Source of the DNA: Dehalococcoidia bacterium
Lineage (GTDB): Bacteria; Chloroflexota; Dehalococcoidia; Lucifugimonadales; Australimonadaceae
Reading direction: 5' to 3'
NCBI GenBank assembly: GCA_965116305.1
Contig: OZ220673.1
Span: 2,403,362-2,467,361 of the forward strand
DNA length: 64,000 nucleotides
Shown here: positions 12,254 to 63,321 of the stretch, one piece after another
Position numbering within the stretch: position 1 is the first letter of the stretch
Layout: each line of letters starts with the position of its first letter
Position numbers and translations under genes: made by a program
Notes under the pieces: model-generated
What the model was told of the DNA's origin: nothing
Databases searched by the model: none
The model's input: only the letters and a program-made list of their open reading frames with translations

Positions 12254-12484
12254 CCTCCCCGTCGTTCCTGCACAGCCCCCGCCACTCCCGTCCTTTCCCG
12301 TCATTCCCGCGAAGGCGGGAATCCAGCGTGCCCGGGCAGGGCACACGGGGCGGGGCGCCTGATCCCCTCTCCCTACAAGGGGAGAGGGTTAGGGAGAGGG
12401 TACTCTGGGGGGAGGGACGGAAGGGCCCCCCTTCGCCCCCTGGGAGAGGGAAACGCGCGCCAGCGCGAGGGTGAGGGTGAACCG
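12254..12484. repeat. intergenic palindromic-repeat cluster 1 (modules M5, M1, M2, M3)
   Basis: M1 GTCATTCCCGCGAAGGCGGGAATCCAGCGTGCCCGGGCAGGGCAC at 12301-12345. M2 CCCCTCTCCCTACAAGGGGAGAGGG at 12365-12389. M3 CGCGCGCCAGCGCGAGGGTGAGGGTGAACC at 12455-12484. All three recur elsewhere in the window. Confidence 0.8.
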
Positions 12485-12518
12485 CACGCGGGGCGGAGAG
12501 TGCTCCGGGAATAAGGAA

Positions 12519-12550
12519 GGCCCCGCTCAGTTGAGCGGGGCCTCTTCTTT
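12519..12550. terminator. bidirectional rho-independent terminator (GGCCCCGCTC-AGTT-GAGCGGGGCC + TCTTCTTT)
   Basis: A perfect 10-bp stem between the convergent thyX and the minus-strand gene ending at 12571. T-containing tracts lie on both sides. Confidence 0.6.
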
Positions 12551-12570
12551 AGCGTATCTGTCCGTTGTGC

Positions 12571-13581
12571 CTAGGCGAACGCACGTCGGCGGGAGCGGAA
12601 GACCACCAGCCCGCCGCTGAGGACGAACGCAGCGCCCAGTGCGAGAGCCGCCAGCGCAACCATCGGTACGAGCGAGTCGCCGGTGGCGGGCGGAGCCCCA
12701 ACGTTGGGGCGGAACGCGGCGAGGTCCTGCGACAACTCGTAGAGGTGCACCGCGCCGTAGGGCGCCTCGGCTTCTCTGGTTACCTGGTCAAGCGCCTGGC
12801 CGTCCTGCTCGGTGCCCGAGTACAGCCGGGTCGCCCATGCGAGGAGGTTCTTGGTCTCCTGCTCGGCCTCGATGCCGGATGCGCCGGACGCGCGCGACGC
12901 GGCGCCCCGCACCTCGCCGGCGAGCCTGATCACGTTGTTCGACGCGTTGATGATGTCGTTCGCAACGGCTTCGACGTTCTCGTCGCCGCCGCTGGCGGAC
13001 GAGAAGATGAGGTCGCTGGCAACCGCGGACGATTCCCGCGCCGAAGCGACGACACCGTCCAGCATGCCCGCAGCCGCGTCGGCGTCTCCCGCCTCGGCGT
13101 AGGCCAGCACTTGCGCGGCCTGGTTGCGCGCCGCCGTCGCCACACCGCCCTCACCCACGAGAGCGCTGACGTGCGAGAGAACGGCCCCGCGCGTCGCCGC
13201 ACCGTAAGCGATAACGCCGGAAGGAGCGGGGTCGGGGTCGTCCAGCGGCTCCACCGTAATCGCGAATACACCGTAGCGCGCGAGGAGGTCCGCCCCGCTG
13301 GGGGAGACGTACTCGCCCTGGAGGAACGGGCCGCGGCCAAGCCTGCCGGTGCTGAGCTTGTTATCGTCGGCGTCTATGAGCCAGCCTTCGTAGGTAGAGC
13401 CGTGGGAAAGCACGGTGGCACGGGTGAAATCGACCACCAGGCTGTCGCTTGCCGCGTTGGCGTCGCGGAAGTGGGCGGTGCCGCCAAGGGCAGGTGCCTG
13501 CGCGCTCGCGCTGAGGGTCATGAGCAGGGTCAGCGCCAGCATCAAGGCTACGCTGATGGAGAGCTTTCGGCGTGTGAACAT
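12571..13581 (-). CDS. secreted surface protein with an RskA-C-like N-terminal domain and a sortase-type C-terminal sorting signal
   Basis: 336 aa. The signal peptide is MFTRRKLSISVALMLALTLLMTLSASAQA. ...YEGWLIDADDNKLSTGRLG...FAITVEPLDDPDPAPSG resembles the anti-sigma-K RskA C-terminal domain. The C-terminus is PPATGD, then a hydrophobic helix, then RSRRRAFA. Confidence 0.65.
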   Translation of the reverse strand: MFTRRKLSISVALMLALTLLMTLSASAQAPALGGTAHFRDANAASDSLVVDFTRATVLSHGSTYEGWLIDADDNKLSTGRLGRGPFLQGEYVSPSGADLLARYGVFAITVEPLDDPDPAPSGVIAYGAATRGAVLSHVSALVGEGGVATAARNQAAQVLAYAEAGDADAAAGMLDGVVASARESSAVASDLIFSSASGGDENVEAVANDIINASNNVIRLAGEVRGAASRASGASGIEAEQETKNLLAWATRLYSGTEQDGQALDQVTREAEAPYGAVHLYELSQDLAAFRPNVGAPPATGDSLVPMVALAALALGAAFVLSGGLVVFRSRRRAFA

Positions 13582-13845
13582 CCCGCCTCCTGTTAGTCCG
13601 GTGACTCTTTACGCATCGAGGCATGGCCGGACGATGCTCTCCGGACACGCCTAATGCATATCATATCCTTCGCCTGACCGGAACCCGGTCTGGGCTTTGC
13701 ACGGCATTATAGTACATCATCGCCGCTTCGCCATAGTTTTTACAGCGTCCTCTCATCCGAGTTTCCGCGAATACACACCTGTGCGTATCCGTTTGACCAG
13801 CCATCCGCCCGGTTATACCATGCCCCGCAATCGAATAGCGAACGT

Positions 13846-13936
13846 TCAGGGGAGCCGGGCACCGCGTCCGGCTGAGAGGCCCGTCACGGGCGACCCTCCG
13901 AACCTGACCTGGGTCATGCCAGCGTAGGAAGAGCGA
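13846..13936 (+). promoter_or_regulatory. TPP (THI-box) riboswitch
   Basis: CAGGGGAGCCGGG...CCGGCTGAGAGG...GACCCTCCGAACCTGACCTGGGTCATGCCAGCGTAGGAAG matches the conserved GGGGxGC / CUGAGA / ACCC..GAACCUGAUCUGGAUAAUGCCAGCGUAGGGAA core. A downstream hairpin (GGGCCGCTC..GAGCGGCCC) precedes the SD AGGAGG of the 14008 gene. Confidence 0.9.
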
Positions 13937-14007
13937 TGCAACCGGCAGATGTCGCAAAGGGGCCGCTCCTCCACTGAGCGGCCCTTCGCTATGCAGGAGG
14001 AGACGCG

Positions 14008-15510
14008 ATGTCTACCGAGGCCTGGGCCCTCATCGCTGCGATCGTCACCATGGCCGTCATGTCCGCGGCGGGCATCGCCTACACGAGGGCGAGGCGGCAG
14101 ACCATCGAGGACTTCGTCTCTGCGCGCGGTTCCATCGGCGGCATGACCGCGATGGCCACCATGGCCGCATCCCTGCTCGGCGCGTGGATCCTGTTCAGCC
14201 CTGCTGAAGCGGCGACCTGGGCAGGGGTTGCCGCTCTCATCGGGTACGGCATCGGGCAGGCCGCTCCCATCGTGGCCTTCACTGTTGTCGGCCCGCGTAT
14301 GCGCAGACTCGCGCCGAACGGTCACTCCCTCAGCGAGTTCGTCTGGCAGCGGTACGGCCGTGCGATGTATCTCCTCACGCTCCTCATCATCGTCCTCTAC
14401 ATGTTCACGTTCCTCGCCGCCGAGATGGGCGCGATCGCACGAGCGGTGGGGCACGTTGCCGGTGCGCGGCTCGAACTGACACTCGTGCTCGTCGGCGTCG
14501 CAACGCTGGCCTACACCGTCTACGGCGGCCTGCGCGCCTCCATCTTCACGGACAACATCCAGTTCGCCATCATCGTCCCCCTGCTCATCGCCGTCCTCGT
14601 CGCCGCGCTCGCCCACTTCGGCGGTTGGACCGCGGCCTTCGATACGGTGCGGGAGGAGAACGCGGCGCTGCTCGACGTCACCCAGCTGCACGGCATCGAG
14701 TTCGGCCTCACGCTCGTGATCGCCATCCTCGCGGCGAACCTCTTCCACCAGGGGCTCTGGCAACGCGTATATGCCGCAAAGACGGACGGCGACATCCGGC
14801 GCGGCTTCCTCGCCGCGGGCGCGCTCGTCGTCCCGCTGATCGTCGCCGCGGGACTGTTCGGACTGTGGGCCGTCAGCAGCGGGCTGGTGAACGACGACCA
14901 ACCCGCCTCCATCGCGCTCTTCTCGCTGGCCCTGGAAGTGCTCCCCGGCTGGGCGCTCGTTGTCCTCGTCGCGCTTGCGCTCGTACTCGTGATGAGCAGC
15001 ATGGACACGCTCCTCAACGGCATGGCGAGCGTGTTCACGACCGACCTCTCACGCATCCGCGGCGGGCGCGGGCTGCTTCGTTCCACCCGGCTCATCACTG
15101 CGTTCCTCATCATCCCGGCCGCCGTCGTCGGTTATGCGTTCGACAGCGTGCTCTACCTCTTCCTCATAGCGGACCTCGTCTGCGCCGGCGCGATGGTGCC
15201 GGTATTCGCAGGCATGTGGGGCCGGCATCTGAGTGGAACGGGGGCCGTCACCGGTACGGTGGTCGGCATAGTCGTGGGGGCCCTCTTCTTCCCCAGGCCG
15301 GACCTCTCCGGCTGGTGGACGTGGGAGGGGCTCACGAGCGTATGGCACATCCTCGCGTCCGGGAACCTGCTGGCCAGTTTCCTCCTCGCTGTCGTCACCT
15401 CGTCGGTGGTCACGGCGCTGTTCGTCTTCGCAGCCCGGCAGCGCGCCACCGCCGGGTTCGAGCTGGAAGCGCTTGCTGACGAGATACGCCCGCTGGAGAG
15501 CGAAGCGTGA
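14008..15510 (+). CDS. sodium:solute symporter (SSS) family transporter under TPP-riboswitch control (thiV-type candidate thiamine-precursor importer)
   Basis: 500 aa with about 13 TM segments and SSS-like N-terminal repeats. Its position is riboswitch > transporter > tenA > thiD. Confidence 0.8.
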   Translation: MSTEAWALIAAIVTMAVMSAAGIAYTRARRQTIEDFVSARGSIGGMTAMATMAASLLGAWILFSPAEAATWAGVAALIGYGIGQAAPIVAFTVVGPRMRRLAPNGHSLSEFVWQRYGRAMYLLTLLIIVLYMFTFLAAEMGAIARAVGHVAGARLELTLVLVGVATLAYTVYGGLRASIFTDNIQFAIIVPLLIAVLVAALAHFGGWTAAFDTVREENAALLDVTQLHGIEFGLTLVIAILAANLFHQGLWQRVYAAKTDGDIRRGFLAAGALVVPLIVAAGLFGLWAVSSGLVNDDQPASIALFSLALEVLPGWALVVLVALALVLVMSSMDTLLNGMASVFTTDLSRIRGGRGLLRSTRLITAFLIIPAAVVGYAFDSVLYLFLIADLVCAGAMVPVFAGMWGRHLSGTGAVTGTVVGIVVGALFFPRPDLSGWWTWEGLTSVWHILASGNLLASFLLAVVTSSVVTALFVFAARQRATAGFELEALADEIRPLESEA

Positions 15511-15513
15511 GCC

Positions 15514-16185
15514 ATGGCTGAGCCGTTCACCACCCGCTTGAAAACAGCAGCCGCGGACGTGTGGGAGGCGCAGCACGAGCACCCGTTCATCCGGGGCATC
15601 GGCGACGGCAGCCTCGACCTCGCCCGCTTCCGGCACTGGGTGCGGCAGGACTACCGTTTCCTGATCGAGTACGCCCGGATGCTCGCGACAGCGTCGGCGC
15701 GCGCCCCTAGCCTCGAAGCGATGACGAAGCTGGCGCAGCTCACGAACGAAACGCTGAACGTAGAGATGTCCATGCACCGCTCCTACGCGGCTGAGTTCGG
15801 CATCAGCGAGGAAGAGTTGGAGCGCGAGACGATGTCGCCTACCTGCCGCGCCTACACGGACTTCCTCATCCGCACGGCTGCCACGGGCAGTTTCCCCGAG
15901 GTCGTCGGCGCGCTGCTGCCGTGCATGTGGGGATTCTCGGAGGTCGGTCAGCGGCTCGCCGCACGGGGACGACCGGAAGACCCGCGCTACGCCGCATGGA
16001 TCGACATGTACGCGTCCGCCGAGTTCGCCGAACTGGCCGGGTGGTGCCGCGGACTGCTCGACCGCATCGCTGAAGGGCTGCCCGAGGACGAGTTGGCCCG
16101 CATCGAAGAGACGTTCGTCACCAGCTCCCGCTACGAGTACCTCTTCTGGGAGATGGCATGGAATCAGGAGGAGTGGCCGGTATGA
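15514..16185 (+). CDS. tenA: thiaminase II / aminopyrimidine aminohydrolase TenA
   Basis: 223 aa. ...[40 protein letters not shown]...YTDFL...ALLPCMWGF... is the TenA/PqqC-like fold signature. Confidence 0.85.
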
Positions 16186-16982: not shown

Positions 16983-17027
16983 CCCCTTCCCTCTTGATGG
17001 GGGAAGGTTGGGGTAGGGGGGTGAACC
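16983..17027. repeat. intergenic repeat cluster 2 (variant M2 hairpin CCTTCCC..GGGAAGG plus variant M3 GGGGTGAACC)
   Basis: CCCTTCCCTCTTGATGGGGGAAGGTTGGGGTAGGGGGGTGAACC lies directly after the thiD stop. Confidence 0.5.
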
Positions 17028-17438: not shown

Positions 17439-17480
17439 GCCACCTCCTGCTCGCGTGCGGGAGGTGGCCTTCAATTTGCG
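17439..17480 (+). terminator. rho-independent terminator after the HU gene (GCCACCTCC..GGAGGTGGC + CTTCAATTTGCG)
   Basis: A 9-bp perfect stem with a 12-nt loop, followed by a T-containing tail. Confidence 0.55.
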
Positions 17481-18625: not shown

Positions 18626-18628
18626 CGC

Positions 18629-19582: not shown

Positions 19583-19829
19583 CGGCAACCTCCGTCATTC
19601 CAGCGAAAGCTGGAATCCACTCCCCCTGCCCATCGATGTGAGTACCCCATTTTCATGTTGAGCGGAGCTGAGGGCGCAGCCTGAAGCGCAGTCGAAACAT
19701 CTCTCGGAGAGAACATCCGTGGGCTGCGGCACGCCGCCCGGGAGATTCCTCGACGCCGCTGCACTCCGCTCGGAATGACTGGATAATCCTGTCTATCCTG
19801 TCCATCGATGTGAGTAAGATGTACCTGTC
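19583..19829. repeat. intergenic repeat cluster 3 (M1 variant hairpin 19594-19618 plus TIR element 19653-19779)
   Basis: GTCATTCCAGCGAAAGCTGGAATCC, followed by a TCATGTTGAGCGGAGC...CTCCGCTCGGAATGAC element. Confidence 0.8.
19653..19779. mobile_element. MITE-like element (about 127 bp) with imperfect terminal inverted repeats, bracketed by a 15-bp direct repeat
   Basis: The TIRs are TCATGTTGAGCGGAG and the reverse complement of CTCCGCTCGGAATGA. The direct repeat CCATCGATGTGAGTA is at 19630-19644 and 19802-19816. The 5' 40 nt and 3' 40 nt are homologous to the element at 25410-25613. Confidence 0.45.
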
Positions 19830-20142: not shown

Positions 20143-20213
20143 ACCTCTCCCTTGAGGGGAGAGGTCGCCACGCAGTGGCGGGTGAGGGTGAACCGGCGGC
20201 GGGTGAGGGGGTG
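20143..20213. repeat. intergenic repeat cluster 4 (M2 + M3)
   Basis: CCTCTCCCTTGAGGGGAGAGG-TCGCCACGCAGTGGCG-GGTGAGGGTGAACC, plus a partial second GGGTGAGGGGGTG, between convergent genes. Confidence 0.75.
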
Positions 20214-24226: not shown

Positions 24227-25380
24227 GCAGCATCCCCGGTCGTCATCTGCCCGTCCCGGACACGCAGATGGTGGGCAGAGTGCAGGAACACGTCGGGCAG
24301 CGCATGGGGATCGGCGGTCGTCACGATGGTCTGAGGATAGCAACACGCTTCTTCCAGCACGAGTTTCCTGCGGCGTTCGTCGAGCTCGGACAGCGCGTCG
24401 TCCAGCAGCAGCAGCGGTTGGTCGCCCCTGCGCTCAGCCAGCAGACGCGCCTCGCCCAGCCGCATCGCCAGCGCAGCCAGCCGGGCCTGCCCTCGCGAGG
24501 CGTGCCGCGTCGCTTCCACACCGTTCAGCATCAGCCGCAGATCGTCGCGATGCGGGCCGACGACCGTCATGCCGCGCGCGCGTTCCTGGTCGCGCGATGC
24601 ACGCAGCGCTTCCCTCAGCGCACGCTCCCCATCCCCGTCTTCCGGTTCCCCAACCGTCCCCACGTATGCAATGGACAGCGCGTCCTGCGACGACAAGCGC
24701 TCGAACGCGGACGCGGTGAACGCTGCCAACGTCGCCATGGACGACCAGCGTTCACGCAGCACGACGGCGCCCTCCTTCACCAACGCGTCGTCCCAGAAAG
24801 CGAGTTCTTCCTCCCTGGCGCGCCCCTCCCGCATCGCGCGAAGCAACGTGTTCCGCTGCGCCAGCACCCGGTGGTACCGCGAGAGCGTCTGCACGTACCG
24901 GCGCGATACCTGCGCGAGCAATACGTCGAGGTAACGCCTGCGCCCGCTCGGGGGGCCGGACACCAGCTCGATGTCCTCGGCCGCGAAGAGCACCGCGCCC
25001 ATCATCCCCACGAGATCGGACGTCCGTTTCGGTGCGCCGTTCACCCGGACCTGCTTGGCGGTGCTGTTGCCCTCTCTGCAGTCGAGGCCGACGCGCAATT
25101 CGAGCGGCCCCTGCGGCCCTTCGAGCGCTGCCGCCACGATCGTATACCCGCCGGCTTCCGCTGCCTGCCACGAGACGAGGTCGCGCTCCGTCACCGCGCG
25201 GTACGACTTGCCGATGGCAAGCAGGTACACCGCTTCCAGCAGATTGCTCTTGCCCTGCCCGTTCTCGCCGCTGACAACGGTGAGCCCTGGCCCCAACGCA
25301 AGGTCGAGCTGCCGGTAGGAGCGGAAGTTCGTGAGTGTCAGGTTCGTGAGTTGCACTGCTGCAATGATAATCGTCACCAC
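24223..25380 (-). CDS. recF: DNA replication/repair protein RecF
   Basis: 385 aa ORF. ...LTLTNFRSYRQLDLALGPGLTVVSGENGQGKSNLLEAVYLL... and ...LLLLDDALSELDERRR. The true start may be the in-frame GTG at 25356 (VQLTNLTLTNF), which fits canonical RecF N-termini better. Confidence 0.9.
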   Translation of the reverse strand: MVTIIIAAVQLTNLTLTNFRSYRQLDLALGPGLTVVSGENGQGKSNLLEAVYLLAIGKSYRAVTERDLVSWQAAEAGGYTIVAAALEGPQGPLELRVGLDCREGNSTAKQVRVNGAPKRTSDLVGMMGAVLFAAEDIELVSGPPSGRRRYLDVLLAQVSRRYVQTLSRYHRVLAQRNTLLRAMREGRAREEELAFWDDALVKEGAVVLRERWSSMATLAAFTASAFERLSSQDALSIAYVGTVGEPEDGDGERALREALRASRDQERARGMTVVGPHRDDLRLMLNGVEATRHASRGQARLAALAMRLGEARLLAERRGDQPLLLLDDALSELDERRRKLVLEEACCYPQTIVTTADPHALPDVFLHSAHHLRVRDGQMTTGDAA

Positions 25381-25397
25381 ACGCCGAGGTGCGGGGG

Positions 25398-25623
25398 CTC
25401 CGTCTTATTGTCATGCTGAGCGGAGCTGAAGGCGCAGCCTGAAGCGCAGCCCCGCGCTTTAGCGCGCAGCATCCTCTCGGGAAGAACGTCGGGGGGACGG
25501 TTCACCCTCACCCGCGCTTTCAGCGCGACCTCTCCCCTCAAGGGAGAGGGGTTCCCCCGAGAGATTCCTCGACTCCGCCATCGGCTATCGCCGACGGCTC
25601 CGCTCGGAATGACAAGCACATCA
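25398..25623. mobile_element. composite MITE-like repeat element (cluster 5) bracketed by a perfect 24-bp direct duplication
   Basis: The TIR element spans 25410-25613 (GTCATGCTGAGCGGAGC...GCTCCGCTCGGAATGAC) and has M3+M2 modules nested at 25499-25549. The flanking duplication TCACCACACGCCGAGGTGCGGGGG is at 25374-25397 and 25624-25647. Confidence 0.6.
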
Positions 25624-27123
25624 TCACCACACGCCGAGGTGCGGGGGGAGGATGGTGGAGTCCGCGTCATCGCCGACGTCCGGGTCGTGCTCGTCTTCGT
25701 CGCGCGTAGGCGAGGGGACGGGGATGCCTGTGGGTGGTCGGGGGTGGAGCAGGAACGGCTCGTAGCCGGTCCAGATCTGCAGCGACGGCGGGGTCATGAA
25801 CGCGAGGGCGAGGGCGTCGGCGCGGTCCGGCGACCGCAGCTTCTTCTTGCGCAGCTCCCGCTTGCTCTCCATCACCACCTGGCCGGAGCTGGAGACGTCG
25901 TAGCGCAGCGAGAGGAGTTGAGCGGCGAGCTCCTCGTCGTCCGGCAGCGCGATGAGGCGGTCGTTGATGAGGCGGCGCAGCTCCCAGAAGATTTCGGAGC
26001 GGTGGTTTGCGAAGCGCGTGGGGTGCGGCGCCCTGCGTCCGAACTGCACGCCCTGGACGGGCGCACTCAGCTCGCGCAGGCGGTCGGCGACGCCCCCGCC
26101 GACGCCGCCCTCATCCACGAAGATCGCCTCCGCGCCGAGCTCGCGCGCCATGAGATTGGCCTCCCCCGCCAGGCGCATGGTGTCGATGCGCTCGAACGAC
26201 TTGAGCGCGACGACGCGCTGCCCACGGCGCGCGCAGAGCACCGACTTGTCGTCGCCGAACCGGCCGACGTCCACGCCGATGTAGACGGGCTGCCGGGCGT
26301 CGTCCTCCTCCGTGGGCGCGCCCTCGCCGGTGGGGGCGTCCTCGCGCATCGCGTCCTCGACGGCTGCGCGTCCGACGAGCGAGTCCTCCAGGGTGTCGGG
26401 GAACTGCGCGTAGACGGCGGCGATGAACTTGGGGTGGTCGAGACCCCAGTGCAGGGCCTTGTCGGCGATGTCCTCGGCAGTGATAAGGCCGGGCCGCGCG
26501 GGCTCCTCGCCGGTGAGGTTCGGCGTGTCGTAGGCGGAGATGCGGATGCGCTCGTAGTGGTCGCGCTTCCCGTGGTGAGACTCGTAGAACGTGCCGGAGG
26601 TGGAGAAAGCGTTGCCCGCCAGGAGCGTCTTCGACGCGTTGAGGCGGAGCGCGGCGTCGAAGTGAGACTCGCGGACCGCGTGCGCCTCGTCGACGATGAG
26701 CAGCAGTTCCGGCGAGTGGAAGCCGTGGATGTTGTCCGGGTTGTTCGTGGCGAAGCCGATGGCGAACCGGTCGGGCGAGATGAAGTACTTGCCCTTCGTC
26801 AGCTTGCCGCTGAGGGCGTCCCCGGCGGCGGCGCAGACGGCGGCCAGCTCTTGCCAGAGCACCTCGCACACCTGGCGGTTGGTGGATGAGAGGACGACGA
26901 CCTTCGCCTGCGCCCGCGTTTCGACCCACCAGAGGATGAGGCGGGCGAGCGCCCAGCCCTTGCCGCTCCCGTTAGCGCCCACGACGGACACGCGCCGGGA
27001 CCCTGCGACGGCGTTCAGCATGTCGCGCTGCTTCGAGTAGGGCTTGCCTGCCGCGCCGAGGACGTTCTCGACGAACCCTGCGGGGTCGTCCCGATACTGT
27101 GGATAGCGGACCTCGTTGCTCAT
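25624..27123 (-). CDS. phage terminase large-subunit-like ATPase/nuclease (orphan)
   Basis: The start is set at MSNEVRYPQY (ATG 27123, with GGAAGG 6 nt upstream) inside ORF 25624..27273. It has Walker A-like VVGANGSGKGW and Walker B LLLIVDEAH. The RNaseH-like nuclease half reads IGVDVGRFGDDKSV...FVDEGGVGGGVADRL...SPDRADALALAF. Confidence 0.8.
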   Translation of the reverse strand: MSNEVRYPQYRDDPAGFVENVLGAAGKPYSKQRDMLNAVAGSRRVSVVGANGSGKGWALARLILWWVETRAQAKVVVLSSTNRQVCEVLWQELAAVCAAAGDALSGKLTKGKYFISPDRFAIGFATNNPDNIHGFHSPELLLIVDEAHAVRESHFDAALRLNASKTLLAGNAFSTSGTFYESHHGKRDHYERIRISAYDTPNLTGEEPARPGLITAEDIADKALHWGLDHPKFIAAVYAQFPDTLEDSLVGRAAVEDAMREDAPTGEGAPTEEDDARQPVYIGVDVGRFGDDKSVLCARRGQRVVALKSFERIDTMRLAGEANLMARELGAEAIFVDEGGVGGGVADRLRELSAPVQGVQFGRRAPHPTRFANHRSEIFWELRRLINDRLIALPDDEELAAQLLSLRYDVSSSGQVVMESKRELRKKKLRSPDRADALALAFMTPPSLQIWTGYEPFLLHPRPPTGIPVPSPTRDEDEHDPDVGDDADSTILPPHLGVW

Positions 27124-27176
27124 GTCATGCCTTCCGTTCGCTGCCATTCCTTCGTGATGCTCCGTTCCTTCTTTAG

Positions 27177-27265
27177 CCCTCACCCCCAGCCCCTCTCCCA
27201 GGGGGCGAGGGGAGCCAGGCGAGGTTCCTGCTCTCCGCGCGCGCTGAAGCGCGGGAACGACGGGG
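27177..27265. repeat. intergenic repeat cluster 6 (CCCTCACCCCC, M2 variant, GC hairpin + M5 GGGAACGACGGGG)
   Basis: CCCTCACCCCCAGCCCCTCTCCCAGGGGGCGAGGGG...CGCGCGCGCTGAAGCGCGGGAACGACGGGG. Confidence 0.6.
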
Positions 27266-27275
27266 TTAACCAAAA

Positions 27276-30315: not shown

Positions 30316-30486
30316 CCCGTCCACCCCGCCGCACTTGTGGTATGTCATTCCGAGCGAAGCGCTGGCTGCGCTCAACATGACAAGCCCCCCTTCCCACCGG
30401 CCCCACCGCGTGCGCTGCCCGCGCACCCTGGATTCCCGCCTGTGCGGGAATGACGGAAGAAGGCGGGAACGACGGAGTGGGGCGGC
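30316..30486. repeat. intergenic repeat cluster 7 (mini TIR element 30344-30381, M1 reverse 30410-30454, M5)
   Basis: GTCATTCCGAGCGAAGCGCTGGCTGCGCTCAACATGAC; GTGCGCTGCCCGCGCACCCTGGATTCCCGCCTGTGCGGGAATGAC; GGCGGGAACGACGG. Confidence 0.8.
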
Positions 30487-35761: not shown

Positions 35762-36166
35762 CTAGCGCTTGGTGTACTGAGGCGCACGGCGGGCGCGCTT
35801 GAGGCCGTACTTCTTGCTCTCCTTGATGCGCGAGTCGCGCGTCAGGTAGCCGTGGCTGCGCAGCTCCTTCTTGAGGTTCGGGTCGGCCAGGAGCAGTGCA
35901 CGGGCGATGCCGTGGCGCAGCGCGTCCGCCCATGCGGAGACGCCGCCACCCTCGATCTTCGCGACGACGTTGAACCGGTCGGCCGCCGCAGAGATGGTCG
36001 AGAACGGTTGCATGGCGCGCTTCTGCCAGTCTATCCAGGGCAGCGCCTCTTCGAGCGGTTTGCCGTTCACGATCACCGTGCCCGTGCCGCCCGGGTAGAG
36101 ACGCACGCGAGCGATGGCAGACTTCCGCTTCCCCGTCCCGTAGTAGTAGCTCTCCTGCGTCGTCAT
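35762..36166 (-). CDS. rpsI: 30S ribosomal protein uS9
   Basis: 134 aa. ...YYGTGKRKSAIARVRL...LTRDSRIKESKKYGLKRARRAPQYTKR. Confidence 0.95.
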   Translation of the reverse strand: MTTQESYYYGTGKRKSAIARVRLYPGGTGTVIVNGKPLEEALPWIDWQKRAMQPFSTISAAADRFNVVAKIEGGGVSAWADALRHGIARALLLADPNLKKELRSHGYLTRDSRIKESKKYGLKRARRAPQYTKR

Positions 36167-36873
36167 CTGGTCTCGCTCTCCTCGTCCTGTTCGCCCTCAG
36201 CGGTTTCTTCCCCCTCGGGCCCGCCTTCCGGCGACTCGTCTACAGCAGCCTCCTCAGCCTCGGCGACGGCCGTTTCGGGCTCCTCCGCTTCCGGAGCGGC
36301 CTCCGCGACTTCTTCAACCGCCTCTGCTTCGGCAACGGCCTGAGGGGCCTCTTCCTCGGCCGCCGTCTCCTCGCGCACGGCTCGGCGCCTGCGGCGCGCG
36401 GGCGCCGGCGCAGGGGCGGCAGGGGCCTGCTTCGCCTTGCCCATGCCTATGCGGACCTGTGCCTCGTGCGGGTGCGTCGCGGCCGTGTACACCTTCAGCC
36501 GCCGGAGCATCCGGCGGCCAAGCCGGTTCCGGGGCAGCATCCCCTTCACCGCGAGCTCGATCACCCGCTCGGGGAAACGCGTCAGCATCTCTTCCAGCGT
36601 GCGCGTGCGCAGGCCGCCGAGGTAACCGGAGTGGCGGTAGTAGAGCTTCTGGGACATCTTGTTGCCGGAGACCCCGACCTTCGCGGCGTTGACCACGATG
36701 ACGAAGTCGTCCGACAGCTGATGGCGGCTGTAGTCCGGGCGGTGCTTGCCCTGCAGCAGACCGGCGACCTTCGTGGCGAGGCGGCCCAGCCGCTCGCCTT
36801 CCGCGTCCACCACGTGCCACTTCTCCTTACGGGCTGCCGGTTTCGTATGTTTCGTCGTGCGTTGTAGTTGCAT
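36163..36873 (-). CDS. rplM: 50S ribosomal protein uL13 with a C-terminal Ala/Glu/Pro-rich tail of about 90 aa
   Basis: 236 aa. The core is ...KWHVVDAEGERLGRLATKVAGLLQGKH...VKGMLPRNRLGR.... The tail is ...APAPAPARRRRRAVREETAAEEEAPQAVAEAEAVEEVAE...GEQDEESETR. An ATGA overlap with rpsI lies at the extended stop. Confidence 0.85.
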   Translation of the reverse strand: MQLQRTTKHTKPAARKEKWHVVDAEGERLGRLATKVAGLLQGKHRPDYSRHQLSDDFVIVVNAAKVGVSGNKMSQKLYYRHSGYLGGLRTRTLEEMLTRFPERVIELAVKGMLPRNRLGRRMLRRLKVYTAATHPHEAQVRIGMGKAKQAPAAPAPAPARRRRRAVREETAAEEEAPQAVAEAEAVEEVAEAAPEAEEPETAVAEAEEAAVDESPEGGPEGEETAEGEQDEESETR

Positions 36874-47707: not shown

Positions 47708-48075
47708 CACAGCACCTCCGGAGCGAGCGAAACGATGCGCATGAAGTTGCGTTCGCGCAACTCCCGGGCCACCGGCCCGAAGATACGCGTACCGCGCGGC
47801 ATCTCCGACTGCGCCAGGATAACTGCCGCGTTGTCGTCGAACCGTATGGTGGAGCCGTCCGGACGCTTGGTCACGGCGCTCGTTCGTACCACGACAGCGC
47901 GCACCACCTCGCCCTTCTTCACGGCGCTGTTCGGCTGCGCGTGCTTGACCGACGCCACGATGATGTCGCCGACCCTGGCGTAACGCCTGCGCGTCCCGCC
48001 GGGGATGTTGAAGCACATGATCTCTTTCGCGCCGGAGTTGTCGGCGACATTCAAGCGCGTCTGCGGCTGAATCAC
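47707..48075 (-). CDS. rplN: 50S ribosomal protein uL14
   Basis: 122 aa. [24 protein letters not shown]... Confidence 0.95.
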
Positions 48076-48947
48076 GACGTCTTCTCCTCGCTCGTCCCTT
48101 CAGCATCCGCTTCTTCGGCGGCCTCCGGCTCCTCTGCATCAGCTGCCGGCTCATCGGCCTCAGCGACCGCAGGGGCGTCGTCGTCACCGGCTTCCTCTAC
48201 CGGTTCCTCAGCGGGCTCCTCGGTCGATTCCTCGACCTCGGCGACCGCGGCCTCGTCTTCAGCGTCGGCCTCTTCCGTCGTTTCCTCAGCAGGCTCGTCA
48301 GCCGGTCCCTCTACCTCTGCAACGGCGGCCTCGTCTTCAGCGTCGGCCTCTTCCGTCGTTTCCTCAGCAGGCTCTTCGGCCGGTTCCTCTACCTCTGCAA
48401 CGGCGGCCTCTTCTTCAGCGTCCGCCTCTTCCACCGGCTCTTCAGCCGCCTCTGCTTCCGTTTCCTCGACCTCAGCGACGGCAGTCTCGTCTTCCGCGTC
48501 TGCTTCTGTTTCCTCGGTCTCTGCAGCGGCAGCTTCGTCCTCTACTTCCACAACGGCAACCGCCTCCTCAGCAGTTTCCTCTGCGGTTGACTCTTCTGCC
48601 TCGACAACGGCAACCGGCTCTTCGACCGCAGCCGCCTCCAGTGTCTCCTCGGCCTCTACGGTCGTGTCGACCTGCGACGCCTGCACGACCTCTTCCCGGT
48701 GCAGCAGTTCGGCGACGCGCCAGCGCTTGGTGCGGGAGAGGGGCCTCGTCTCCATCAGGCGGACGACGTCCCCGACCTTGTACTCGTTCTGTTCGTCGTG
48801 CGCCTTGAATTTCTTCACGTGCCGCACGGACTTGTGGTAGATGGGGTGATGCACGCGGCGCTCCACGACCACGACCACGGTCTTGTCCATCACGTCGCTG
48901 ACCACGCGGCCAACGCGGCTCTTGCGGAGGGCAGCTCTTTCGTTCAT
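48072..48947 (-). CDS. rpsQ: 30S ribosomal protein uS17 with a C-terminal poly-acidic tail of about 200 aa
   Basis: 291 aa. The core is ...[42 protein letters not shown]...[16 protein letters not shown]. It is followed by E/A/T/V/P-rich repeats up to a stop that overlaps the rplN ATG by 4 nt. Confidence 0.85.
48249..48482. repeat. 78-bp tandem repeat (about 3 copies) inside the rpsQ tail
   Basis: GGCCTCGTCTTCAGCGTCGGCCTCTTCCGTCGTTTCCTCAGCAGGCTC... restarts at 48249, 48327 and 48405. It encodes 26-aa units (..[23 protein letters not shown]..). Confidence 0.8.
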
Positions 48948-52222: not shown

Positions 52223-52875
52223 CAGGCCACCGCCTCCTGCGTTCGCACGCGGCGGGTGTCCGACCATATCTCGTCCGTGCGCCGGACCGCGTCCGGGCTC
52301 ATGAGCACTGCGTCGTAGCGAAGCAGGTCCAACACATTCACGAGGTCGGCGCGGATGGCCTTCACGCGGGGGATGTTCCGCACCGCGACTCCGGTCTGCG
52401 ATTCCGCTCCCAGCACGACGAGCGCCGAGCCTTTCACCTCGAAGGCGGACAGCACTGCCGCCATCGCCTTCGTCTTCTGCTCCATCGAGTCCAGCCCGTC
52501 GACAACGAACAGCCGCTCCGCGGCTACCTTGCCCGACAGCGCCGTCCGGATCGCCTGCCGGCGCATCTGCTTGGGCATCCGCTGCCGGTACGAGCGGGGC
52601 GTCGGCCCGAAAGCCACACCGCCTCCGCGATGGTGCGGCGACTTCCAGGAGCCCTGCCGCGCACGGCCGGTGCCCTTCTGGGAGAAAGGCTTGCGGCCGG
52701 TGCCGTTCACCTGTCCTCGCGTCAGGGTGTTGCTGGAGCCCTGCCGCTGGTTCGCGCGGTGGTACACCAACGCCTGGTGCAGCAGCTCCGGGTTCTCAGG
52801 CGCGCCGAAGACCACGTCGCTGACTTCCAGCGTGTCCGTGCCGTTGGCGCTCACGTCGTACAGAGGAAGTTGCAT
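52222..52875 (-). CDS. rplD: 50S ribosomal protein uL4
   Basis: 217 aa. ...[40 protein letters not shown]. Confidence 0.95.
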
Positions 52876-54056
52876 CAGGAACGCTCCTCCTCTTTGTCGG
52901 GCTGCTCGGCATCCCCGGCCTCGGCTTCGTCGCCCGACTCATCGTCGGCAGGCGCTTCGTCGACCGACGCTTCTTCAGCCGCAGGCTCGTCGGCAGATGC
53001 TTCTTCAGCCGCAGGCTCGTCGGCAGATGCTTCTTCAGCCGCAGGCTCGTCGGCAGATGCTTCTTCAGCCGACGCCTCGTCACCCGACGTCTCGTCGACT
53101 TCGGCTGCGGGCTCTTCAACTTCTGCGACAGGCTCTTCCTCCGACGTCTCCGTCGACGGTTCCTCCGCAGCAGCTTCTTCGGCTTCCGCTGCCGGTTCGT
53201 CTGCAACAGTCTCCTCAACCTCCGCCACCGGCTCCTCCCGGAGAACTTCTTCGGCCTCGGCCGGCTGTTCCGCCGCGACAGTCTCCTCGACTTCCGCGAC
53301 CGGTTCCTCCGCCGCCGGTTCCTCAGCCTCCGTTGCGGTCTCCTCAACCACCGCTTCCTCTACCTCGGCGACCGCCTCTTCCACGACGGCTTCCTCGACA
53401 ACCGGCTCTTCAGGAACGATGCGCTCCGCCACGGGAACGCCGTGTGCGTAGCGCACCATCACGGTGGTGTTGCGCGCGCCGGGAACGGCGCCCCGCACGA
53501 AGAGCAGGTTGCGCTCGGCGTCTACCTCAACGACCTTGAGCTTGCGGACGGTCTTGCGCTTGTTGCCCATGTGGCCGGGCATCTTTTTGCCCTTCAACAC
53601 ACGACCCGGGTACGTCCCCGCGCCGATGGAACCTACCGCCCGGCCACGGTCGCCCTGACCGTGCGTCTTCTGTCCGCCGCCGAAGCCGTGACGCCGCATG
53701 GCGCCCTGGAAACCGCGGCCCTTGGTCGTCGACACCACGTCGACGAGGTCATCGGCCTGGAACTGATTGACCCGTAACTCCTGGCCCACCTTGTAGGAAG
53801 AGACGTCGTCTGAGCCGAACTCGCGCAGGTGCCGTAACCGCGCGCCCGACAACGCCAAGTGTCCCGCCGCGGGTCTGCTCAACTGCTTCACCGAGCCGTA
53901 GCCCAGTTGGACGGCTTCGTACCCGTCGCGTTCCTCGGTGCGGACCTGTGTGACGACACAAGGCCCGACTTCGAGCACGGTGACAGGGATGACCCGCGCC
54001 TCTGAAGCGAAGAGGTGCGTCATCCCTATCTTCTTGCCTATCAGTCCTTCGATCAT
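52875..54056 (-). CDS. rplC: 50S ribosomal protein uL3 with a C-terminal poly-acidic tail of about 180 aa
   Basis: 393 aa. The core is [16 protein letters not shown]...[24 protein letters not shown]...[14 protein letters not shown]. The tail then carries EEPVAEVEE and [10 protein letters not shown] repeats. Its stop shares one nt with the rplD ATG. Confidence 0.85.
52951..53070. repeat. 30-bp tandem repeat inside the rplC tail: three perfect copies plus one degenerate copy
   Basis: GCAGGCTCGTCGGCAGATGCTTCTTCAGCC occurs three times at 52981-53070, preceded by the diverged copy GGCGCTTCGTCGACCGACGCTTCTTCAGCC. It encodes [10 protein letters not shown] three times. Confidence 0.9.
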
Positions 54057-58274: not shown

Positions 58275-58295
58275 CAACGAAAGGGGAGGGGAACC

Positions 58296-59372: not shown

Positions 59373-59375
59373 ACC

Positions 59376-60146: not shown

Positions 60147-60251
60147 CGCACGCCTCCTCGTTGAACGGCGGGATTATAGGCCAGCGGCGCGATGGCGACC
60201 CGCTCCGCTACAATGCTCCCCGCCCTATTCCGGAACGCAGGAGGAACGCGC

Positions 60252-61724
60252 GTGCTGCCCGAGGTCAAAGCCAACTACGGCAAACTGAGGAATCTCATCA
60301 ACGGCGAGTGGGTCGAGCCCGACGCTAGCGGCTGGCTGGACGTGGAGAACCCCGCGACCACCGGCGTCATCGCGCAGGTCCCGCTCTCCACCCCCAGCGA
60401 GGTGAACGACGCGGTCGCCGCGGCGAAGCAGGCGTTTCTTACATGGCGTGAGACTCCGCCCGTGCTGCGAGCGCGCAGCCTCTTCACGCTCAAGGGGCTG
60501 ATGGAGCAGCACTTCGAGGAGTTCGCTCGCACCATCGTCCAGGAGCACGGCAAGACGATCGAGGACGCGCGCGGCGAGACGAGACGCGCCATCGAGAACG
60601 TGGAGGTCGCCGCCGGCATCCCCACGCTCATGCAGGGCTACGGCCTCGAGAACATCGCACCCAGCATCGACGCCGAGGCAGTCCGCCAGCCTATCGGCGT
60701 CTTCGGCATCATCGGGCCGTTCAACTTCCCGCTCATGGTGCCCAACTGGTTCATCCCGTACGCCATCGCCACCGGCAACACCGTCGTCGTCAAGCCGTCG
60801 GAGCAGACCCCACTCTCGCAGACGCGCATGGCCGAACTCGCGCTCGAGGCCGGCATCCCCGCCGGCGTGTTGAACGTCGTCCACGGCGCGAAGGCTGCCG
60901 TCGACGCACTGCTGGAACACCCGGACGTGCGCGGCATCTCGTTCGTCGGCTCCTCTCCTGTGGCGCGTTACGTCTACACGAGGGCGTCCGCGGAGGGGAA
61001 GCGCGTCCAGTGCGGCGGCGGCGCGAAGAACTTCCTCGTCGCCATGCCGGACGCCCACCTCGACTCGACCATCGACAACATGATGGGCTCCATCTTCGGC
61101 GCGGCAGGGCAGCGATGCCTCGCGGGCTCGGTCGTCGTCACCGTGGGCGGCGCCTACGAGAGCGTGCGCGACCGCCTTGCCGAGGGCGCACGGAACCTCA
61201 AGCTCGGCTACGGGCTGGACGAGACCGTCGGCATGGGGCCGGTCATCTCCCAGCGCTCGCTGGACCGGGTGCTCGGCTACGTCGACAAGGGCGTCGAGGA
61301 GGGCGCGGACCTCATCGTGGACCGGCGCTCCGCCCGGCAGGACGAGGAGCTTGCGGGTTACTTCGCCGGGCCGTGCGTGTTCGACGGCGTCGAGCCGCAG
61401 ATGGCCATCGCGAGGGAGGAGATATTCGGCCCCGTCGCGGGCATCATGCGCGCCGACTCGCTGGACGAGGCGATAGGCCGCATCGAGGCCCTGCCGTTCG
61501 GCAACGCCGCCAGCATCTTCACCGCCAGCGGCGCAGCGGCGCGGGAGTTCAGGCACCGCGTGACCGCGGGCAACATCGGCGTCAACGTCGGCGTCGCCGC
61601 GCCGATGGCGTTCTTCCCGTTCGGTGGCATGAAGGACTCCTTCTTCGGTACGCTGCACGCCCAGGGCCGCGAGGTCGTCGATTTCTTCACCGACCGCAAG
61701 GTCGTCATCAGCAGATGGTTCTAG
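60252..61724 (+). CDS. mmsA: CoA-acylating methylmalonate-semialdehyde dehydrogenase
   Basis: The start is set at GTG 60252 (AGGAGG 7 nt upstream) inside ORF 60192..61724. ...NLINGEWVE...FNFPLMVP.W....A...GN..V.KPSE...GAAGQRCLA... and the C-terminal FPFGGMKDSFFGTLHAQGREVVDFFTDRKVVISRW are typical of MmsA/IolA. Confidence 0.85.
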   Translation: MLPEVKANYGKLRNLINGEWVEPDASGWLDVENPATTGVIAQVPLSTPSEVNDAVAAAKQAFLTWRETPPVLRARSLFTLKGLMEQHFEEFARTIVQEHGKTIEDARGETRRAIENVEVAAGIPTLMQGYGLENIAPSIDAEAVRQPIGVFGIIGPFNFPLMVPNWFIPYAIATGNTVVVKPSEQTPLSQTRMAELALEAGIPAGVLNVVHGAKAAVDALLEHPDVRGISFVGSSPVARYVYTRASAEGKRVQCGGGAKNFLVAMPDAHLDSTIDNMMGSIFGAAGQRCLAGSVVVTVGGAYESVRDRLAEGARNLKLGYGLDETVGMGPVISQRSLDRVLGYVDKGVEEGADLIVDRRSARQDEELAGYFAGPCVFDGVEPQMAIAREEIFGPVAGIMRADSLDEAIGRIEALPFGNAASIFTASGAAAREFRHRVTAGNIGVNVGVAAPMAFFPFGGMKDSFFGTLHAQGREVVDFFTDRKVVISRWF

Positions 61725-61726
61725 CC

Positions 61727-62827
61727 GTGCGCGCCGCCGTCTTCTCCCAGCCCAACCAGCCCATGACCGTCGAGGAACTGGTCATGCCGGAGCCGCACGA
61801 GCACGAGGTGCGCGTTAAAGTCGCCGCGTGCGGCGTCTGCCACACCGACCTCCACGTGCTCAAGGGCGAGGTCGCCTTCCCCACGCCCGGCGTGCTCGGC
61901 CACGAGGTCTCCGGTGTCGTCGACGCCACAGGCCCGGGCGTGACGAACGTCGCCGTGGGCGACCGTGTCGTCTGCTCGTTCATCATGCCGTGCGGGAACT
62001 GCGGCTACTGCGTCCGCGGACGCGAGGACCTGTGCGAGACGTTCTTCGCCTACAACCGCCTCAAGGGCCAGTTGTACGACGGCTCGACGCGCCTGCATCG
62101 CGCCAACGGCGAACCCATCGCCATGTACAGCATGGGCGGGCTCGCCGAGTATGCCGTGACGCCGGACACGTCCGTCTTCCCGCTACCGGAGAGCGTGCCG
62201 CTCACAGACGCCGCCATCGTCGGCTGCTCCATCTTCACTGCCTACGGTGCAGTGCGGAACCAAGCCGACGTCCGCCCCGGCCAGAGTGTCGCCGTCTTCG
62301 CCGTCGGCGGCGTCGGCACGCAGGTGCTGCAGATGGCGCGGGCGTTCGGCGCGTCGCAGGTCATCGCCGTGGACATACGCGGCGACAAGCTGGAGAAGGC
62401 GCTGGAGATGGGAGCAACGTACACTGTCAACGGCTCGACCGAGGACGCTCCGGCACGCGTCCGCGAACTTGCGAACGGGCGCGGCGTCGACGTCGCGATC
62501 GAGGCGCTCGGCTCGCCCGTCACGGTGCGGCAGGCGTTCGAGTCGGTGCGCGACGGCGGCAAGGTGGTGCTCATCGGCATCGCGGCTGTGGGCGTGGAGG
62601 TGCCGCTGGAGATCACGCGGTTCGTCCGGCGCGGGATCATGGTCGCGGGCTCCTACGGCGCGAAGGCGCGCAGCGACATGCCGGAGATCGTCGATCTCGT
62701 GCGGCGCGGCGCGGTCGACACCAGCGCGCCCATCACCCGCCGCTACACGCTCGACGAGGTGAACGACGCCTACGGCGCGCTCGCCAGCGGCGACATCGTC
62801 GGCCGCGCCATCATCGAGATGGGATAG
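61727..62827 (+). CDS. zinc-dependent alcohol dehydrogenase family protein
   Basis: GTG 61727 (VRAAVFSQPNQP...), taken from the tail of ORF 61010..62827. It has CGVCHTDLH, GHEVSGVV, a structural-Zn motif CGNCGYCVRGREDLC and VFAVGGVG. Confidence 0.85.
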   Translation: MRAAVFSQPNQPMTVEELVMPEPHEHEVRVKVAACGVCHTDLHVLKGEVAFPTPGVLGHEVSGVVDATGPGVTNVAVGDRVVCSFIMPCGNCGYCVRGREDLCETFFAYNRLKGQLYDGSTRLHRANGEPIAMYSMGGLAEYAVTPDTSVFPLPESVPLTDAAIVGCSIFTAYGAVRNQADVRPGQSVAVFAVGGVGTQVLQMARAFGASQVIAVDIRGDKLEKALEMGATYTVNGSTEDAPARVRELANGRGVDVAIEALGSPVTVRQAFESVRDGGKVVLIGIAAVGVEVPLEITRFVRRGIMVAGSYGAKARSDMPEIVDLVRRGAVDTSAPITRRYTLDEVNDAYGALASGDIVGRAIIEMG

Positions 62828-62856
62828 CGAAGGTCACAGCGCACGGAGAGGGATCG

Positions 62857-63159
62857 ATGGCCGGCAATCACAGATGGACATTGCGGGATGTACAGGTTGC
62901 GTTCGCTCTGTACTACCTCCATGCACCTATTGGGCGAAAGCCACCCACTCACCCGGAAGTCCGGCGTTCTGCGCGTGCCATAGGGACAACGCCTGCTTCG
63001 ATGTCAATGAGGCTAGCCAACATCGCGAGCCTGGAGAACACTACCGGTCTCGACAATGCGGCGAAGTTGGATCGAGAGCTGTGGGTGCAGATGCAGACAG
63101 ACCGTGAAGGTATTTTGAAGGCATGTGCGGAGTCCATGAAACAGCTAGGGATGCCCTGA
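62857..63159 (+). CDS. small hypothetical protein in a low-GC patch; resembles the N-terminal helical domain often fused to HNH endonucleases
   Basis: ATG 62857, about 100 aa. MAGNHRWTLRDVQVAFALYYLH...EVRRSARAIGTTPASMSMRLANIASLE... No nuclease domain is present. Confidence 0.45.
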   Translation: MAGNHRWTLRDVQVAFALYYLHAPIGRKPPTHPEVRRSARAIGTTPASMSMRLANIASLENTTGLDNAAKLDRELWVQMQTDREGILKACAESMKQLGMP

Positions 63160-63321
63160 ATAAGCGGGGACGTCCCCTGAGAGATGCTTCGACTCCGCTG
63201 CGCTCCGCTCAGCATGACAACACTCCACCTGTCCCCACAACTCCCCCTTGTGCGCTGCCCGCGCACCCTGGATTCCCGCCGGTGCGGGAATGACGGGAAG
63301 TGGTTGACGCTCTGCCGGCCC
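63160..63321. repeat. intergenic repeat cluster 8 (GGGGACGTCCCC palindrome, 3' half of the TIR element 63179-63218, M1 reverse 63250-63294)
   Basis: GAGAGATGCTTCGACTCCGCTGCGCTCCGCTCAGCATGAC; GTGCGCTGCCCGCGCACCCTGGATTCCCGCCGGTGCGGGAATGAC, which is near-identical to 30410-30454. Confidence 0.75.

Follow-up and report, generated by a model that had tools for sequence, protein, structure and literature searches.

Eight clusters of palindromic repeats lie between the genes of a 64,000-nt stretch of DNA from a Dehalococcoidia bacterium of the Chloroflexota (assembly GCA_965116305.1, contig OZ220673.1, positions 2,403,362 to 2,467,361), hereafter called the window. An earlier note, made from the sequence alone, had described these clusters as a single combinatorial family of five modules, M1 to M5. 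Our analysis instead resolves the modules into two unrelated families, both previously described: the hairpins of the Ssn-related motif (SRM), to which M1, M5 and M4 belong, and the BoxC/PIT/TM triplex motif (TM), which consists of M2 and M3. We consider it likely that the clusters are mosaic arrays, comparable to the NIMEs of Neisseria or the BIMEs of enterobacteria, of these two independent classes of structured repeats (class A and class B, respectively) and that class A is acted on by Ssn, a small GIY-YIG nuclease of single-stranded DNA (ssDNA). M1 is identical to a published consensus, the hairpins covary, both hairpin classes within class A are linked to Ssn genes in other organisms, and sites that are filled in the window are empty in its relatives.

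Results

The repeat clusters and their setting

The window has a G+C content of ~67% and contains housekeeping genes only, among them thyX, a thi operon under the control of a thiamine pyrophosphate (TPP) riboswitch, dinB, recF, mtnA/mtnP, metK, ahcY, a ribosomal-protein operon, secY, rpoA and fusA. Each module was recovered within 1-2 nt of the position first reported, far above chance. All eight clusters proved to be intergenic, at the sites already named: after thyX, thiD, the OCD-family gene and DUF971; between recF and a P-loop gene labelled terL; upstream of that gene; between mtnA and mtnP; and before the LLM gene. Seven M4 ends and four M1 copies fall within the 64 kb, all of them intergenic. 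The note had raised the possibility that the modules occur in the window alone, but every one of them is also present in loci of other Dehalococcoidia/SAR202 genomes.

Two sets of relatives were used for comparison. Four syntenic 21-kb loci (L374-L377; RecF 93-94% identical) were found via RecF homologues, which at 93-95% identity are annotated as Chloroflexi, and the orthologous thyX locus, with flanks ~90% identical, comes from Chloroflexi bacterium SB0664_bin_11 (L176). The P-loop open reading frame (ORF) at 25624-27273(-) has only threshold-level matches (AAA_30, Terminase_6N) and adjoins recF in L377 too, so the gene is no evidence of a prophage. The true start of the ORF is probably close to 27141, so that cluster 6 remains intergenic.

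M1 and M5 are hairpins of the NTS type

The M1 core, GTCATTCCCGC-N4-GCGGGAATCC, is found exactly at 12300(+), 30430(-) and 63270(-), with a two-mismatch variant at 19594(+); the chance expectation is 0. A repeat search of the window extends the repeat to 56-75 nt. The core corresponds to the Neisseria Transformation Sequence (NTS) of Chenal et al. (Nat Commun 2025, PMC11893778), CGTCATTCCCGCGMAVGCGGGAATCYRG, of which the classical dRS3 repeat, ATTCCC-N8-GGGAAT, is a part. The copy at 12299-12326(+), CGTCATTCCCGCGAAGGCGGGAATCCAG, contains dRS3 and agrees with the NTS consensus without mismatch. The copy at 30428-30455(-) has one mismatch, which is what Chenal et al. allowed, and the copy at 63268-63295(-) has two, both in the loop. 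On this agreement we take M1 to be the published NTS/SRM motif, dRS3 included. The degenerate SRM pattern HGTCWYN(0-2)YYVSBRHN(0-5)WNVSBRGN(0-2)RNCYNB is matched by M1 at 12299 and 30428 and by the variant at 19593-19620(+), CGTCATTCCAGCGAAAGCTGGAATCCAC; the window holds 5 matches vs 0.98 in shuffles. At the site orthologous to this variant, L374 reads GTCATGCCAGCGAAAGCTGGCATCC, with compensatory changes in the stem, and L377 is near-identical (ATCATGCC…).

Folded as ssDNA, M1 is predicted to form two hairpins (-19.3 kcal/mol, z = -4.1), the first of which is the NTS. The published biochemistry concerns SsnA (cd10448), a GIY-YIG protein of 94 aa with a single domain: it requires the NTS in ssDNA form for binding, its cut falls a few nucleotides upstream, and the critical bases are those 5' of the stem (GTC) and the C that follows it (PMC11893778). 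These bases are kept in all M1 copies, in the complete M5-type hairpin at 27223-27261 and in all detected M4 arms. The second hairpin is specific to the lineage. In Chloroflexota copies it reads GTGC[G/C/A]CGGGCAG[C/G/T]GCAC, and the variable positions show Watson-Crick covariation (G:C / C:G / A:T). In the window it lies at 12328-12344(+) (GTGCCCGGGCAGGGCAC) and, within the M1 copies at 30401-30455(-) and 63241-63295(-), at 30410-30426 and 63250-63266. The order in Chloroflexota is NTS, second hairpin and G-rich spacer, often followed by an M4 arm.

A scan of species-representative genomes with a 32-nt M1 pattern returned at least 115 stretches, mostly from metagenome-assembled genomes of Dehalococcoidia, SAR202 and other Chloroflexota, with several copies per genome. 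Outside Chloroflexota (Rickettsiales, Nitrospirota, Gammaproteobacteria, Zixibacteria, Patescibacteria) only the 25-nt core is shared, and the core is also present in >120 viral contigs. The identical 25-nt core was further seen (loci L122-L236) in Holosporales, Thermodesulfovibrionales, Nitrospiraceae, Magnetococcales, Hydrogenedentes and Parcubacteria/Patescibacteria. Its identity in such distant lineages points either to horizontal spread of the Ssn/NTS pair or to strong constraint on its specificity.

M5 taken alone is weak, since it is an 11-mer with 10 matches at no more than one mismatch vs 3.3 expected. Seen beside complete copies, M5 proves to be an SRM of the variant GTCGTTCC, often truncated. 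The copy at 12261-12276(+), GTCGTTCCTGCACAGC, keeps the 5' half only; the orthologous L176 position reads GTCGTTCCTGCGCAGC, and further upstream the L176 array has a complete GTCATTCCTGCGAAGGCAGGAATC hairpin. Another half-site, GTCGTTCCCGCC, is at 30462-30473(-). The complete SRM-like hairpin at 27223-27261(-) has the form GTC-GTTCC-loop-GGAAC-C, where the loop is itself a GC hairpin. In L315, Ssn genes have complete GTCGTTCCCGC..GCGGGAACC hairpins of this type on their flanks.

M4 pairs two inverted arms of a second hairpin class

M4 ends were matched at 19652/19763, 25410/25597, 30344/30365 and 63202, and once outside the clusters (61327), which gives 8 matches vs 1.6 expected. The typical M4 of Chloroflexota loci has a length of 100-117 nt and consists of GTCATTCCGAGCGGAGC..CGAGGAATCTCTCGGG, a variable stretch of ~30 nt and CCCGAGAGATGTTTCG..GCTCCGCTCAACATGAC. 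The arms differ at three positions, TCC vs GTT or GCT, and the matching complement, GGA vs AAC or AGC, precedes ATCTC. An arm's own complement followed by ATC was present in 79 of 107 M4 arms, vs 2.9% for the complements of other triplets, and the rule holds also in unrelated viral contigs. Each arm covaries with its own complement and therefore has the SRM grammar GTC-stem-loop-stem'-C, and M4 as a whole is a REPIN-like doublet, in inverted orientation, of a second class of hairpin, GTCAT-NNN-GAGCGGAGC…N'N'N'-ATCTC (class 2). Folded as ssDNA, a whole M4 has z = -2.0. A literature search for the M4-arm sequences returned only unrelated primer matches.

The doublet at 19652-19779(-) consists of a TCC arm (19744-19779) and a GTT arm (19652-19705). 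The doublet at 25410-25613(-) is 204 nt long and carries a TM unit nested in its centre, as first described; an independent M4 in L214 also holds nested triplex-motif units. The mini form at 30344-30381(+) is a collapsed M4 in which two arm termini are joined into a 38-nt palindrome (predicted fold -9.8 kcal/mol, z = -2.6), and the element at 63183-63218(-), formerly a half copy, is one complete arm, GTCATGCTGAGCGGAGCGCAGCGGAGTCGAAGCATC. Together with the neighbouring M1 this arm makes a composite of ~124 nt near 63 kb, which recurs in at least 8 other Dehalococcoidia loci.

Direct repeats of 20 nt, CCTG[C/T]CCATCGATGTGAGTA, flank the first doublet at 19625-19644 and 19797-19816, with one mismatch; the maximum in shuffled sequence was 10. 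Target duplications were considered as a general feature of M4 and rejected, as only two window copies carry them; none was found at the 15 M4 copies of other genomes where they were sought.

M2 and M3 form one triplex motif

M2, CCTCTCCC-loop-GGGAGAGG, occurs at 12366, 20144 and 25529 (expected 0), and M3, GGTGAGGGTGAACC, has three exact copies at 12470, 20181 and 25499(-). A repeat search of the window joined the two into a single 52-nt unit. The positions of the five modules therefore stand, while their separateness does not: M2 and M3 prove to be one unit, and M5 is a half or a variant of the M1-type hairpin.

The closest counterpart is known from E. coli K-12, which has 23 copies of CCCTCKCCC-loop-GGGAGAGGG-TTA/CCG-GGGTGAGGG (Holder et al., NAR 2015, PMC4666352). 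All of them are intergenic, with no fixed orientation, and they are tied to intergenic rearrangement; a triplex forms in vitro, and the motif is present in >260 genomes (PMC4666352). The strict TM pattern had 4 matches in the window vs 0 in 100 shuffles. The three blocks CCCTCKCCC, GGGAGAGGG and GGGTGAGGG are joined by short loops (1-6 nt, as in ITxF) at 12364-12400(+), which reads CCCCTCTCCC-TACAAG-GGGAGAGGG-TTA-GGGAGAGGG with blocks as in the E. coli TM_ECO table, and at 27176-27212(-), a canonical copy resembling type B, CCCTCGCCCCCTGGGAGAGGGGCTGGGGGTGAGGGC. Three further units, at 12426-12483(+), 20144-20194(+) and 25498-25549(-), keep the three blocks and have a GC hairpin of 14-16 nt as the second linker, longer than that loop length. 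The first of these, with the linker CGCGCGCCAGCGCG and then M3, is conserved in L176; the third is the unit nested in M4. A degenerate TM-like unit at 16983-17027(+), CCCCTTCCC-loop-GGGGGAAGG-TT-GGGGTAGGGG-GGTGAACC, recurs in other loci, and the L214 M4 has a comparable one nested in it. The TM unit folded as ssDNA has z = -3.2. By block sequence and order, M2+M3 is the BoxC/PIT/TM intrastrand-triplex motif, often with a GC-hairpin linker.

Clusters come and go between close relatives

The recF, mtnA/mtnP and DUF971 junctions, where the window has clusters, are empty in relatives. Between the P-loop gene and recF, L377 has 13 nt and L374 is continuous, vs a 222-nt insert in the window that consists of GTGCTT, the 204-nt M4 and AATAAGACGGAG. 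This insert is flanked by a 28-nt duplication of the 3' end of the P-loop gene. The proximal copy (25620-25647) holds the last codons of the gene and its TGA stop (25626-25624), and the distal copy, ATCGTCACCACACGCCGAGGTGCGGGGG (25370-25397), is now non-coding. As the duplication includes the last codons and the stop, the P-loop gene stays intact. Alignment to the relatives places the likely start of recF, GTGCAACTCACG, ~20 nt downstream of the duplication.

In L374, L375 and L377 mtnA and mtnP overlap (ATGA), vs a 171-nt cluster in the window (30316-30486) that begins directly after the mtnA stop and splits the two genes. At the OCD/DUF971 junction, L375 and L376 have 35 nt, L374 and L377 have 179-196 nt with one SRM and one M4 arm, and the window has 247 nt with the 20-nt duplication. 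The junction of DUF971 with the convergent gene has 5 nt in L374, 19 nt in L375 and L376, 50 nt with an M5-type SRM in L377 and 79 nt in the window, where the TM unit at 20144-20194 is found. Over the whole region L375 and L376 have almost no modules. The array after thyX is 573 nt long in L176 vs 156 nt in the window. The L176 array (~2516-3088, orthologous to window 12272-12427) contains two tandem 162-nt units absent from the window, each made of the SRM GTCATTCCTGCGAAGGCAGGAATC, a TM-like block and a tail of ~40 nt, and there are extra SRMs at that thyX locus too.

The clusters thus come and go between close relatives. The original observation is real and statistically solid, and its reading as dispersed, structured, intergenic and non-autonomous repeats that are mobile now or were so recently is reasonable: it is now backed by the empty sites in the four syntenic loci, by the 28-nt target duplication at one M4 insert and by the difference of >400 nt in the thyX array.

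Both hairpin classes are linked to Ssn genes in other organisms

Among contigs fetched by the M1 core alone, L037, L088 and L004 carry a GIY-YIG ORF beside an NTS-type hairpin, with copies in inverted orientation on either side of the ORF in L037 and L088. GTC-stem-loop-stem-C variants, the M5 type included, also lie on the flanks of other close Ssn homologues. In L333, found in a scan of Ssn homologues, the ssn gene is surrounded (L333 1338-1998) by inverted doublets of GTCATTGCGAG...GCAATCT arms, like M4.

To extend this, 80 metagenome relatives of the L333 Ssn (L378-L457) were chosen by protein similarity alone. Class-2 arms lay within 1.2 kb of 56 of the 80 genes; the 172 arms correspond to a density of 97 per 100 kb, vs 1.3 per 100 kb in other viral loci and none either beside NTS-type Ssn genes or in shuffles. 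Their median distance from the Ssn gene was 44-150 nt, on both sides, and some are near-identical in form to M4 arms (e.g. GTCATCGCGAGCGGAGCGAAGCGATCTCC). The L333-type Ssn subclade is Bacteroidota-like and low in GC, with up to 10 hairpins within 2.6 kb, and these hairpins fall outside the published SRM pattern. No recurrent partner gene was found beside M4-type arms in 73 viral contigs.

Other features of the window

The TPP riboswitch lies at 13838-13947(+) (71.7 bits), upstream of the operon of sodium:solute symporter, tenA and thiD, and is the sole Rfam match of the window. Three ribosomal-protein ORFs, at 48072-48947(-), 52875-54056(-) and 36163-36873(-), are much longer than their Pfam domains and contain in-frame tandem repeats. 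The S17 ORF encodes 291 aa, with the domain at residues 13-80 and 78-nt repeats at 48145-48534; the L3 ORF encodes 393 aa, with 30- and 36-nt repeats at 52974-53397; and the L13 ORF encodes 236 aa, with the domain at residues 17-135. L13 is long also in the relative L375 (212 aa).

Discussion

In the explanation that we favour, the hairpins of class A would extrude when the DNA is single-stranded, as in replication, repair or incoming DNA. A single-domain GIY-YIG nuclease of ~100 aa (Ssn, cd10448) would then bind the hairpin sequence-specifically and nick a few nucleotides 5' of GTC. Nicks and homology between copies would drive insertion, deletion and reshuffling at hairpin boundaries, leaving arrays that differ between close relatives. 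The triplex (or G-quadruplex) motif of class B, itself linked to local instability, would lodge in the same intergenic slots and in M4 loops.

Several results weigh against this explanation. Hidden Markov models built from 4, 61 and ~140 Ssn sequences found no ssn/GIY-YIG gene in the window, in 115 genome loci (~75 from Chloroflexota) or in the four syntenic loci. The best 120 of ~8,000 homologues of an NTS-type Ssn were all Sphingomonadales-like, and none of 41 viral contigs had an Ssn gene near its M4-type arms. M4 arms do not match the published SRM search pattern, and a lone arm is not predicted to fold stably as ssDNA, which suggests that the M4 stem may be read or stabilised by a protein. 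Flanking duplications were present at only 2 of the 18 M4 copies checked (17 full-length and one mini), both in the window; they measure 20 and 28 nt and are set 6-17 nt apart from the element ends. Whether Ssn nucleases move DNA at all is a question that the authors of the Ssn paper left open (PMC11893778). Because no ssn gene was seen in the window or the fetched loci, the nuclease partner of this genome is one that we infer: the genome presumably encodes a cognate Ssn, and nicking by Ssn would be the cause of mobility. In the published survey, 19% of SRM-rich genomes had no ssn gene (PMC11893778).

The Ssn system resembles the present one in that M1 is identical to the NTS consensus and the hairpins are intergenic, multi-copy and oriented, with GTC 5' and C 3' of the stem. 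The M5 type and other variants flank Ssn homologues, and the IS-like SRM-ssn-SRM unit is reproduced in contigs of other organisms. However, the host here belongs to the Chloroflexota (Dehalococcoidia/SAR202), which do not appear in the main text of the Ssn paper (PMC11893778), M1 has its lineage-specific second hairpin and G-rich tail, the M4 arms have large GAGCGGAGC loops and form inverted doublets, and no ssn gene was found in the window or the fetched loci. The NIMEs of Neisseria, in which 20-bp dRS3 inverted repeats flank RS units of 50-150 bp in arrays (PMC1797815), share the ATTCCC-N8-GGGAAT core, the hairpin-delimited arrays of 50-160-nt units (compare the two L176 units, which start with an SRM) and the variation in length between related genomes. 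Unlike NIMEs, the window arrays are short (80-335 nt), are not regularly bounded by dRS3, include BoxC/TM motifs and class-2 doublets, and flank housekeeping genes rather than surface-antigen genes. The BoxC/PIT/TM_ECO elements (PMC4666352) have the same CCCTCKCCC-loop-GGGAGAGGG-linker-GGGTGAGGG blocks, are intergenic, may point either way and at times form inverted pairs, and show an association with intergenic indels, but three of six window copies replace the 3-nt linker by the longer GC hairpin and add TGAACC, beyond the loops of ITxF, and in the window the motif also nests within M4. All the kinds involved, NTS/dRS3/SRM with Ssn, NIME-like arrays and BoxC/TM, are thus known, and the clusters represent no new kind of system. 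What is modestly new is the Chloroflexota host, the second hairpin class, which takes a doublet form and is linked to an Ssn subclade, and a long duplication where two coupled genes meet.

A bolder form of the Ssn explanation would make the M4 doublets and the composites of M4 arm and M1 into REPIN-like non-autonomous elements that are mobilised in trans by a GIY-YIG Ssn. Ssn/SRM would then be a third hairpin-based ssDNA mobile system besides IS200/IS605 and RAYT/REPIN, spread across phyla and making variable target duplications of 20-28 nt. On this account, the occurrence of the 25-nt NTS in Chloroflexota, Proteobacteria, Nitrospirota, Patescibacteria and others would reflect the cross-phylum spread, and long variable duplications would let an element land between translationally coupled genes and leave both intact. 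We regard this extension as unlikely.

It is quite unlikely that M4, and perhaps the composites, are classical miniature inverted-repeat transposable elements (MITEs), that is, deletion derivatives of an insertion sequence (IS) with a DDE transposase, moved in trans via their terminal inverted repeats and making target-site duplications. M4 has inverted ends (GTCATKYYGAGCGGAGC), a size of 100-200 nt and presence/absence polymorphism in relatives, as do MITEs such as the Correia elements, and two copies are flanked by duplicated unique local sequence. However, the duplications differ in length, lie off the ends and are missing at the other 16 copies checked, so that a target duplication of fixed length is lacking, as is a related autonomous IS. 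When end pairs up to 3 kb apart were sought in ~0.9 Mb of genome loci, none was longer than 204 nt or enclosed an ORF. The arms, moreover, covary internally, occur alone as independent hairpin units and are of the same type as those that flank Ssn genes, which fits a hairpin recognition site better than an inverted repeat bound by a transposase.

A role mainly at the RNA level, in which the modules would be kept by selection as terminators, 3'-end stabilisers or small RNAs, is decidedly unlikely; the earlier note had suggested terminators and mRNA stabilisers among the possible roles. The hairpins are stable and five of the eight clusters follow the ends of convergent or co-directional genes, but the modules have no T-runs, and separate hairpins with T-runs adjoin the clusters at 12518-12543(+) and 27296-27277(-). 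A third terminator-like GC hairpin with a T-run was seen at 17439-17468(+), ~400 nt beyond cluster 2; none of the three shares module sequence. Copies occur in both orientations and also upstream of genes, and what is conserved across phyla is a 25-nt sequence, beyond mere structure. No Rfam family matched the modules at the gathering threshold or at E <= 1, the only matches being the TPP riboswitch and chance ones. SsnA does not bind RNA (PMC11893778), and PIT/BoxC elements are reported to have neither promoter nor terminator activity (PMC4666352).

The note had also proposed a search for a TnpA(REP)/IS200-IS605-type partner, and the palindromic, intergenic repeats, clustered in mosaics with M4 as a REPIN-like inverted doublet, do recall REP/REPIN elements serviced by RAYT, an IS200/IS605-type Y1 transposase; the proposed single-copy protein partner acting on ssDNA hairpins is a further likeness to REP/BIME/REPIN-RAYT. 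We find this very improbable. The motif is identical to NTS and is not a REP, with no GTAG-type head; NTS has its demonstrated partner in a small GIY-YIG nuclease of ssDNA, physical linkage to Ssn genes was seen for both hairpin classes in other genomes, and no RAYT, Y1 or other transposase was seen in the window. More widely, no ssn gene, transposase or recombinase was present in the window or in the ~0.9 Mb of fetched genome loci (~0.7 Mb from relatives). Hardly tenable, finally, is the view that the dRS3-type M1 core serves an IS110/Piv-type recombinase or a filamentous phage as attachment or target site and that the arrays are recombination scars: it has a precedent in Neisseria, where dRS3 is the integration site of Nf prophages via a phage-encoded recombinase (PMC1797815), and >120 viral contigs carry the M1 core, but the window has no recombinase, IS or prophage, no IS-sized repeat stands beside M1 where longer shared Chloroflexota flanks were examined (in CBDBHA01 the shared sequence is only ~116-268 nt), and the M4 and TM units are left unexplained.

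The explanation by Ssn-related hairpins and triplex motifs has practical and biological consequences. The clusters and the spurious ORFs that they generate (VIPAQAGIQ, SFPRRRESS and similar) can be annotated as SRM/NTS and BoxC/TM repeats instead of unknown genes. The Ssn/SRM system, itself described only recently, is extended to the Chloroflexota (SAR202/Dehalococcoidia), and a second widespread hairpin class, GTCAT-NNN-GAGCGGAGC…ATCTC, is added to it, statistically linked to a second Ssn subclade. The natural pairs of filled and empty sites, one of them with a 28-nt duplication at a coupled-gene junction, provide material that may be used to decide whether Ssn nucleases move DNA.

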